Shown here piece after piece: positions 5,281 to 5,367 of a DNA stretch of 64,000 nucleotides. The translations under genes and the position numbers were made by a program. The notes below the pieces were generated by a model. It had not been told where the DNA came from. It was given only the letters and a program-made list of their open reading frames with translations, and searched no databases. How positions within the stretch are numbered: position 1 is the stretch's first letter; each line of letters opens with the position of its first letter. Source of the DNA: Nitrosopumilus sp. (GTDB taxonomy: Archaea > Thermoproteota > Nitrososphaeria > Nitrososphaerales > Nitrosopumilaceae); NCBI GenBank assembly GCA_965205425.1, contig CBDBGZ010000009.1, positions 896,001-960,000 of the forward strand. Direction: 5' to 3'.

Positions 5281-5367
5281 GTCAGGGTCGCATAACACGG
5301 TATTGCGATGGTCTGAAAAACCATATCTGTTTCCACGGATCTGTGGGTTCAAATCCCATCCCTGACG
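5281..5367 (+). tRNA. Type II (long variable arm) tRNA with Ser-like body and GAA anticodon
   Basis: Acceptor GTCAGGG/CCCTGAC; D arm GCA/TGC with GG in loop; anticodon stem ATGGT/ACCAT with loop CT-GAA-AA; variable stem ATCTGT/ACGGAT; T arm GTGGG-TTCAAAT-CCCAT; discriminator G. Confidence 0.9.

Follow-up and report, generated by a model that had tools for sequence, protein, structure and literature searches.

The window analysed here is a stretch of 64,000 nt from Nitrosopumilus sp. (GCA_965205425.1, contig CBDBGZ010000009.1, positions 896,001-960,000 of the forward strand). ARAGORN detected a single tRNA gene in it (5280-5368, plus strand, anticodon gaa). When this gene was scanned against Rfam, RF00005 was the only model reported; the match covers 5281-5367 and the full model (positions 1-71), with 54.6 bits against a gathering threshold of 29 and an E-value of 5.5e-09. 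The minimum-energy fold of the 87 nt (-29.9 kcal/mol) is a cloverleaf completed by a variable hairpin of 6 bp with a 4-nt loop; its z-score is -3.28 and 1 of 200 shuffled sequences was equally stable. The acceptor stem consists of 7 bp, all Watson-Crick, the T loop is TTCAAAT, and U8, C9, A15 and U48 are present. In the D arm, G18 and G19 are carried by a 9-nt loop which ends in GGUA and is closed by a 4-bp stem with a U13/U22 mismatch. The gene at this position is an intact class II tRNA gene. A previous description made from the letters alone (the sequence-only reading) had reported a complete 87-nt cloverleaf with a 7-bp acceptor stem, G18G19, a canonical T arm, a 6-bp variable stem, the A15/U48 pair, a discriminator G and a GAA anticodon; the sequence, ARAGORN, Rfam and the fold are in agreement with it, and the D-stem mismatch, absent from that description, is added here. 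The long arm was also considered as a bulge-helix-bulge intron, which was rejected on reading the sequence: the arm forms a simple hairpin and lacks the two bulges of 3 nt.

Table 1. Features at the tRNA locus, in positions of the window.
Feature	Position	Strand	Evidence or remark
Serpin gene	3874-5136	-	Pfam PF00079, E 1.4e-122; divergent from the tRNA
Putative promoter: purine-rich stretch, then TATA-like TTAATTA (5252-5258)	5243-5258	+	Box 29 nt before G1
Class II tRNA gene, GAA, G73, without encoded CCA	5281-5367	+	ARAGORN, Rfam RF00005, fold, family model R1 (86.2 bits)
Anticodon GAA in loop CUGAAAA (5313-5319), A37	5315-5317	+	Sequence, family alignment, contigs
Long variable region, 18 nt: 6-bp hairpin, 4-nt loop, then 2 unpaired	5325-5342	+	Fold, family covariation
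Discriminator G73	5367	+	Sequence; G in 35/35 aligned members
Trailer, subfamily-conserved, ending in a CTTTAAAAGTTTCAT-like motif (5395-5410)	5368-5412	+	Common to copy B and about 10 homologues
ParB_N and MT-A70 DNA methyltransferase genes, 2 ORFs	5445-6901	-	Pfam PF05063, PF02195; PHROG; convergent with the tRNA

The gene is flanked by a serpin gene and by two ORFs whose PHROG matches are a DNA methyltransferase and a ParB-like protein (Table 1). The other neighbours in the window, identified with Pfam and PHROG, include two modules of TFIIB-like, ParB-like and ParB/MT-A70 genes, transposases of the IS66 and rve types, a toxin gene of the RelE/ParE type and a weak match to an integrase, and no capsid or terminase gene was found among them. 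The TFIIB-like (PHROG 20431) and ParB-like proteins are encoded twice in the island, at 1664-3299 and 11882-14242. The position divergent from the serpin and amid the cargo of an element, which had been proposed from the sequence alone, is upheld by the orientation of the serpin gene, by the transposase, ParB/MT-A70 and RelE/ParE genes and by a homologue located on a terminase-bearing viral contig; these data support a setting that looks like a mobile element. Low G+C was examined as a sign of foreign origin and rejected, the values being 0.46-0.69 for the host tRNAs and 0.45-0.56 for the family.

Downstream of the tRNA, the trailer of this subfamily ends in CTTTAAAAAGTTTCAT about 30 nt past the gene, and other subfamilies carry a different A-rich box at the same distance. 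Candidate roles for the trailer are a terminator of the convergent gene, a promoter or a part of the duplicated unit. An antisense small ORF starting at the trailer motif was rejected because neither its frame nor its length is conserved. A helix between leader and trailer, which would prolong the acceptor stem, was also discarded as a family feature: it spans 8 bp in copy B, against 2 bp in the window copy, a single pair in copy C and 0-4 bp in host genes.

A multi-genus family with a GAA anticodon

Two diverged paralogues in the same genome (C8, 120793-120882, and C9, 254932-255019) are long-arm tRNAs with GAA as well. In both, the acceptor stem, the T arm and G73 agree with the window copy, and the anticodon and D stems differ from it by compensated changes. 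A covariance model, R1, was built from the three copies of this genome (2.2 Mb, 9 contigs) and used to search 151 genomes of the same genus, yielding 31 matches in 19 genomes, including 15 of the 98 high-quality ones. ARAGORN assigned an anticodon to 30 of these 31 matches: GAA in 25, GAU in 3 and CAG in 2. In an even sample of the family (151 genomes, 27 genera), class II GAA tRNAs withstood inspection of the matches in 8 genomes belonging to 5 genera, the raw tally overstating the family since 14 other matches at the same threshold were ordinary Ser-GCU genes; long-arm tRNAs with GAG also occur in other genomes. Exact-pattern scans placed members in Nitrosopumilus, in a MAG of Nitrosotalea and in thaumarchaeal MAGs from soil. 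A35 is kept in every anticodon variant seen (GAA, GAU, GAG and CAG), and all of them would therefore read codons with U in the middle position.

Scans with patterns restricted to the T arm and the 3' acceptor strand, which favour no anticodon, were run on genome and metagenome contigs. On genome contigs, 16 loci were found: 11 thaumarchaeal genes with GAA, 4 genuine tRNA-Ser elsewhere and one without call. On metagenome contigs, the 13 loci comprised 6 with GAA (2 of which duplicate MAG loci), 4 genuine tRNA-Ser, one ambiguous case and 2 without call. The tRNA-Ser genes carry GCU or UGA and belong to non-thaumarchaeal lineages; among the 16 and 13 loci, no anticodon was seen beyond GAA in Thaumarchaeota and GCU or UGA in tRNA-Ser elsewhere. 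The main result from these sequences is that the window tRNA is one member of a conserved multi-genus family and not a single odd gene, a point missed by the sequence-only reading, which described one gene. In the literature searched, no description of long-arm GAA tRNAs in Thaumarchaeota was found, nor is the family mentioned by Krupovic et al. 2019, supplement included, or by the paper on tRNAscan-SE 2.0, in the parts available. The tRNA-Phe integration targets given in the accessible part of the PMC6563490 supplement have normal A73 ends.

The same comparisons bear on the caveat, raised previously, that GAA could be a misread GGA at a homopolymer boundary. The base does lie at the edge of an A run, and a single substitution separates the loop CUGAAAA from CUGGAAA, the loop of the host Ser-GGA. 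Against an error, contigs from 3 runs in 2 studies (X1 and X2 from one study, X4 from another) are identical to the window over 4900-5372, a comparison made on contigs and not on raw reads, in which X1 and X2 may be the source sample and X5 is without coverage of the tRNA. Moreover, the host genome has a separate, intron-bearing Ser-GGA gene which stands apart from the window copy, and GAA is found in both paralogues and in dozens of diverged homologues, as the proposed search for homologues retaining GAA brought out. The probability that an error of sequencing or assembly turned GGA into GAA is regarded as negligible, and the caveat is set aside. In X1 and X2, loose ends at window position 5336 reveal an extra family copy with an anticodon-stem and arm sequence absent from the three assembled copies; the contigs break within the shared T-arm and acceptor repeat.

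The genomic surroundings of the members were compared. The recurrent neighbours of homologues are transposases of 5 families; beyond these, no conserved neighbour was found, save ParB_N or MT-A70 genes at a few loci (in L049 and L060 the homologue is also followed by an MT-A70 gene). The three copies of this genome share no synteny apart from IS copies. Tandem arrays of 3-4 copies with a spacing of about 290 nt, some of them degenerate, were detected at L049:1207-2039 and L052:1501-2111. One member, with 73.2 bits on R1, a GAA anticodon and a shortened D loop, is located at the end of an 11.9-kb IMG/VR contig encoding a large terminase (PHROG 675, E 9e-30); in the viral scans, 2 of the 3 patterns were without match. 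The window and the viral contig both contain 567-aa ORFs, which were considered as relatives and proved unrelated. In another genome, two near-identical GAA copies (L034 and L036) lie 37 kb apart on opposite strands with at least 80 nt of identical, inverted flanks, one of them 1.1 kb from a host tRNA-Leu(UAG) gene; such inverted copies could be the ends of a composite element.

The conservation of structure and anticodon was analysed in an alignment of 35 members to R1 (A7). Standard pairs occupy 92.6% of the pair cells versus 73.3% after shuffling and 37-49% with slid partners, changes on both sides are observed in 22 of the 25 stem pairs and none of 500 shuffles reaches the observed values, counts which overstate the independent support because the alignment was fitted to a model, itself built from GAA copies, and because the members are related. 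All 5 anticodon-stem pairs and 5 of the 7 acceptor pairs are replaced in some members, and the core pairs of the variable stem (helix 4) covary across the 35 members. G73, U33, A35, A38 and the long arm are invariant (35/35 each); A37 is present in 34, G30:C40 in 30 and GAA in 30 of the 35. These data support GAA as a genuine and conserved feature of the family. Upstream, 21 of 37 family copies have a TTWWWWW box whose first base lies between -33 and -27, most often at -29, and most of the remaining ones have TTTTAAC or TTTTATC in the same place; similar boxes precede host tRNA genes. The TATA-like box reported earlier upstream of the window copy is found at this modal distance.

A decaying duplicate of a serine tRNA, devoid of function after a G35A change, would account for the single difference between CUGAAAA and CUGGAAA, and damaged relatives do exist: L007 carries a tandem insertion in the D loop, the T loop of L042 has a deletion, the second copy of L049 has a loop of 8 nt, copy B contains an A/C mismatch, and the D loop of the viral copy is shortened. 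The window copy, however, is undamaged, and GAA persists in several genera despite the replacement of all 5 anticodon-stem pairs, together with promoter-like boxes at a fixed distance. Since GAA, the stems and the promoter spacing are kept across genera, a neutral pseudogene is already disfavoured and is considered very unlikely.

A non-decoding RNA or DNA element in the shape of a tRNA (an anticodon-nuclease decoy, as the sequence-only reading also proposed, an integrase attachment site, a primer or a regulatory RNA) would fit islands full of transposases, toxin-antitoxin genes and methyltransferases, the flanks shared within subfamilies, the tandem arrays in some genomes and the other oddly shaped tRNA-like genes with shifted anticodons in the same genome. 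On the other hand, no att-type partial repeat of the 3' half of the tRNA was found in this genome, and no reverse transcriptase or nuclease partner recurs beside the homologues examined. The hallmarks kept across the family (U8, G18 G19, U33, the T loop, the 7/5 geometry, G73 and, by covariation, the stems) go beyond what a recombination site or a loop-only decoy needs. This alternative is judged improbable, and the best explanation of the sequence data is that the window tRNA is a working accessory tRNA gene.

Serine-type body and phenylalanine anticodon

To the extent covered by the part of Giege and Eriani 2023 (PMC9976931) drawn on here, serine identity relies on the variable arm and G73, with a weaker contribution of G30:C40 (bacterial-type, archaeal SerRS), and the anticodon is ignored. 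The same part of this source gives G34, A35, A36 and A73, plus G20 in yeast and Aeropyrum, as phenylalanine determinants, the three anticodon bases being the strongest for PheRS, and G73 as a LeuRS antideterminant in Haloferax (H. volcanii). The window tRNA displays the long arm, G73, G30:C40, a Ser-style D arm and A37, versus G37 in the host tRNA-Phe; a serine anticodon (NGA or GCU) is replaced by GAA. The host tRNA-Phe (C2:10467-10540) is a type I tRNA with A73, G20, a short loop and G37. The window copy differs from it in all four features, having U20, A37, G73 and a variable arm of 18 nt, and it shares with tRNA-Phe the anticodon bases G34, A35 and A36. It thus contains all the listed SerRS determinants and 3 of the 5 Phe determinants.

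Isotype covariance models were made in house from 11 thaumarchaeal genes each, R2 for Ser and R3 for Leu. Held-out controls were sorted correctly (Ser/Leu bits of 82.7/52.4 for the host Ser-GGA and 52.8/79.4 for the host Leu-CAA). The window copy obtained 60.4 bits with R2 and 49.0 bits with R3. The Ser model was preferred in 34 of 37 members, the top ones reaching 74-79 bits as genuine Ser tRNAs do; the 3 others, L008, L041 and copy B, have longer D loops and are ties or lean slightly to Leu. In a further set, 10 of 12 GAA members favour Ser. Over the 49 scored members with GAA, GAU or CAG, the Leu score is equal or slightly higher in 5, again with longer D loops.

The other long-arm isotypes were compared with the window copy. 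Its D arm has the layout of the host tRNA-Ser and differs from that of tRNA-Leu, where the stem is limited to 3 bp and additional bases follow G19. A tRNA-Leu would have A73 and a Leu-type D arm; here the discriminator is G73, the D loop ends in GGUA and the Leu score is the lower one. A tRNA-Sec would show a 13-bp acceptor/T domain (9/4 in archaea), a long D stem and UCA, none of which is found, the D stem being counted as 3-4 bp in this comparison. The serine-type body attributed to the gene by the sequence-only reading is therefore supported by the long arm, G73, G30:C40, the D arm and the two scores, and in the comparison of isotype model and anticodon which that reading had suggested, Ser scores best (with these home-made models) against the Phe anticodon GAA.

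Genuine tRNA-Ser genes recovered from other archaea by the blind scans were compared with the family. In L073, L078, L123 and L127 the full GTCAGGG/CCCTGAC acceptor stem is present, and L076 starts with GTCGGGG; what these five genes have in common with the family by design of the scan is the CCCTGAC strand on the 3' side of the acceptor stem, G73 and the T-arm bases that were matched. All five are long-armed, L076, L078 and L123 have the same D-arm layout together with U8 and C9, and L123 resembles the family over most of its length. These ordinary tRNA-Ser carry GCU or UGA and belong to other lineages, whereas the thaumarchaeal relatives carry GAA. The identical acceptor stem and shared T arm in genuine tRNA-Ser suggest that the family descended from a serine tRNA.

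Charging, decoding and possible roles

The genome encodes one SerRS with a Seryl_tRNA_N arm-binding domain and one PheRS alpha/beta pair; a dedicated synthetase partner was rejected on this ground. Since all the listed SerRS determinants and 3 of the 5 Phe determinants are present and the genome has no extra synthetase, charging with serine is the most likely outcome, dual charging with Ser and Phe being plausible. In the mechanism proposed, the single standard-type SerRS of the host, blind to the anticodon, would charge the tRNA with serine; the serylated tRNA would compete, probably weakly, with tRNA-Phe at UUU and UUC, and some Phe-to-Ser substitution should result. Weak competition is expected partly because A37 replaces the G37 of the host tRNA-Phe. 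That SerRS charges the window tRNA and that this tRNA reads UUY is proposed tentatively, with a confidence that falls a little short of evens.

An avoidance of Phe codons by the carriers was looked for and none was found: they amount to 4.05% in the island and 4.33% on the viral contig, for 4.37% genome-wide. The carriers, in which Phe codons are as frequent, would not be shielded from strong mistranslation. The family appears to travel in transposase-rich islands, with at least one copy on a tailed-virus contig, so any benefit may fall to the mobile element, in host manipulation or conflict, and not to the cell.

These codon frequencies are also compatible with an accessory, element-borne tRNA-Phe which PheRS would charge through GAA, the serine body being an inherited chassis that perhaps escapes some tRNA-targeting factor, and which would supplement the decoding of UUY. 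Phe accounts for about 4.4% of the codons, mostly UUU, which neither island nor virus avoids, and host tRNA-Phe genes are few. Viruses commonly carry tRNAs, and one copy of the family lies on a viral contig. The anticodon bases are strictly conserved Phe determinants, with GAA in 30 of the 35 members, the homologue L097 has A73 and L098 has a Phe-like loop, CUGAAGA, with G37. A foreign tRNA provided with GAA, namely yeast tRNA-Tyr, is charged by yeast PheRS according to the part of PMC9976931 used here. This reading has to face the invariance of G73 and a long arm maintained by compensation, which are SerRS determinants that PheRS does not need, as well as the absence of G20 and G37 from the window copy. 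Furthermore, the sequence holds no feature known to block SerRS, so that exclusive charging with Phe would call for a hitherto unknown antideterminant. An accessory tRNA-Phe in the strict sense is held to be unlikely; charging with Phe, or with both amino acids, is quite possible on the whole of the analysis.

Class II bodies with the anticodon of a hydrophobic residue exist in the tRNA-Ser(CAG) of CUG-clade yeasts and in the nev-tRNAs of nematodes, which are chromosomal and have Leu, Gly or Ile anticodons; in the yeasts the codon has been reassigned outright. The disagreement between a class II body and its anticodon is common to these tRNAs and to the family described here. They are eukaryotic and chromosomal, whereas Nitrosopumilus keeps a normal tRNA-Phe, and therefore at most an ambiguous decoding is expected. 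To our knowledge, natural tRNAs with such a disagreement are rare, the known cases being bacterial (allo-tRNAs), eukaryotic (CUG-clade yeasts and nematodes) or sporadic human alleles. In the parts of Mukai et al. (PMC5389517) and PMC7609411 consulted, bacterial allo-tRNAs are Ser-type tRNAs with an 8/4 or 9/3 acceptor/T-stem geometry and many non-serine anticodons, some of them on phages or mobile DNA, which SerRS serves whatever the anticodon. A Ser-type body following the same logic of long arm and G73, a non-serine anticodon and a mobile or phage setting are shared with them. Nevertheless, the Nitrosopumilaceae family is archaeal, has one dominant anticodon and keeps the standard 7/5 geometry; the window tRNA, with its 7-bp acceptor and 5-bp T stems, is thus not an allo-tRNA. 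The analogy with allo-tRNAs drawn in the sequence-only reading consequently applies to the proposed mode of action and fails for the defining geometry. As reported in the available parts of PMC12993449 and PMC9956149, a G35A variant of human tRNA-Ser-AGA-2-3 inserts serine at Phe codons. There too a serine body has acquired a Phe anticodon through its middle base, and the human variant is charged with serine whatever its anticodon. It is a single polymorphic allele with AAA in a eukaryote, in contrast to the diversified and conserved GAA family carried by archaeal mobile DNA. Together with the bacterial allo-tRNAs and the CUG-Ser tRNA of yeasts, this allele comes nearest to the window tRNA in the mode of action proposed.

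A broader reading can be formulated, in which Ser-accepting tRNAs borne by elements or viruses would deliberately read hydrophobic codons (UUY for Phe and, in sister genes, AUY for Ile and CUN for Leu) as serine, acting as a transferable mistranslation device equipped with its own promoter. Host takeover, conflict between elements and a regulated diversification of the proteome are candidate uses. This broader reading is possible and rather doubtful. Mismatched tRNAs of this kind are the raw material of changes in the genetic code and of deliberate mistranslation. If charging with serine is true, the family would provide an archaeal case, conserved over several genera and located on the mobile DNA of globally important nitrifiers, the ammonia-oxidising archaea, with selection seen to act on the Phe anticodon as well as on the serine determinants. 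It would raise a testable question: are genes that put serine in place of a hydrophobic residue maintained by cells or their parasites, and for what reason? Should PheRS charge the tRNA instead, a class II chassis could serve phenylalanine, which would be new for the rules of tRNA identity.

Other unusual tRNA genes

Several other uncommon tRNA-like genes were encountered in the course of the searches. Three type I genes of about 71 nt lie in this genome outside the window (C4:165846-165916, C4:166055-166125 and C9:454070-454140). They have near-identical bodies, A73, an AAG (Leu) or GAA (Phe) anticodon and Rfam scores of 47-49 bits; two of them are 140 nt apart, and the bodies resemble multiple tRNA-Asp(GUC) copies. 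Long-arm tRNA-like genes with anticodons other than those of Ser or Leu were found at C7:71772-71865, C9:356125-356209 and C9:1042184-1042266 in this genome and at L035:13119-13214. Their anticodons include CAC (Val, with A73), CCU (Arg, with G73) and one called ACC, and the CAC gene is also conserved in a second genome, where a GAA copy lies 3 kb away. A sister group (L053, L061, L109 and L111), spread over several genera, combines a Leu-type D arm and a CAG or GAG anticodon with, nevertheless, G73.

Finally, the tRNA genes Thr-UGU, Glu-CUC, Ser-UGA, Leu-CAA and Tyr each occur twice with identical scores on different contigs, and the contamination of the genome assembly is put at 5.23%. Duplicated segments or a second strain may be present in the assembly.
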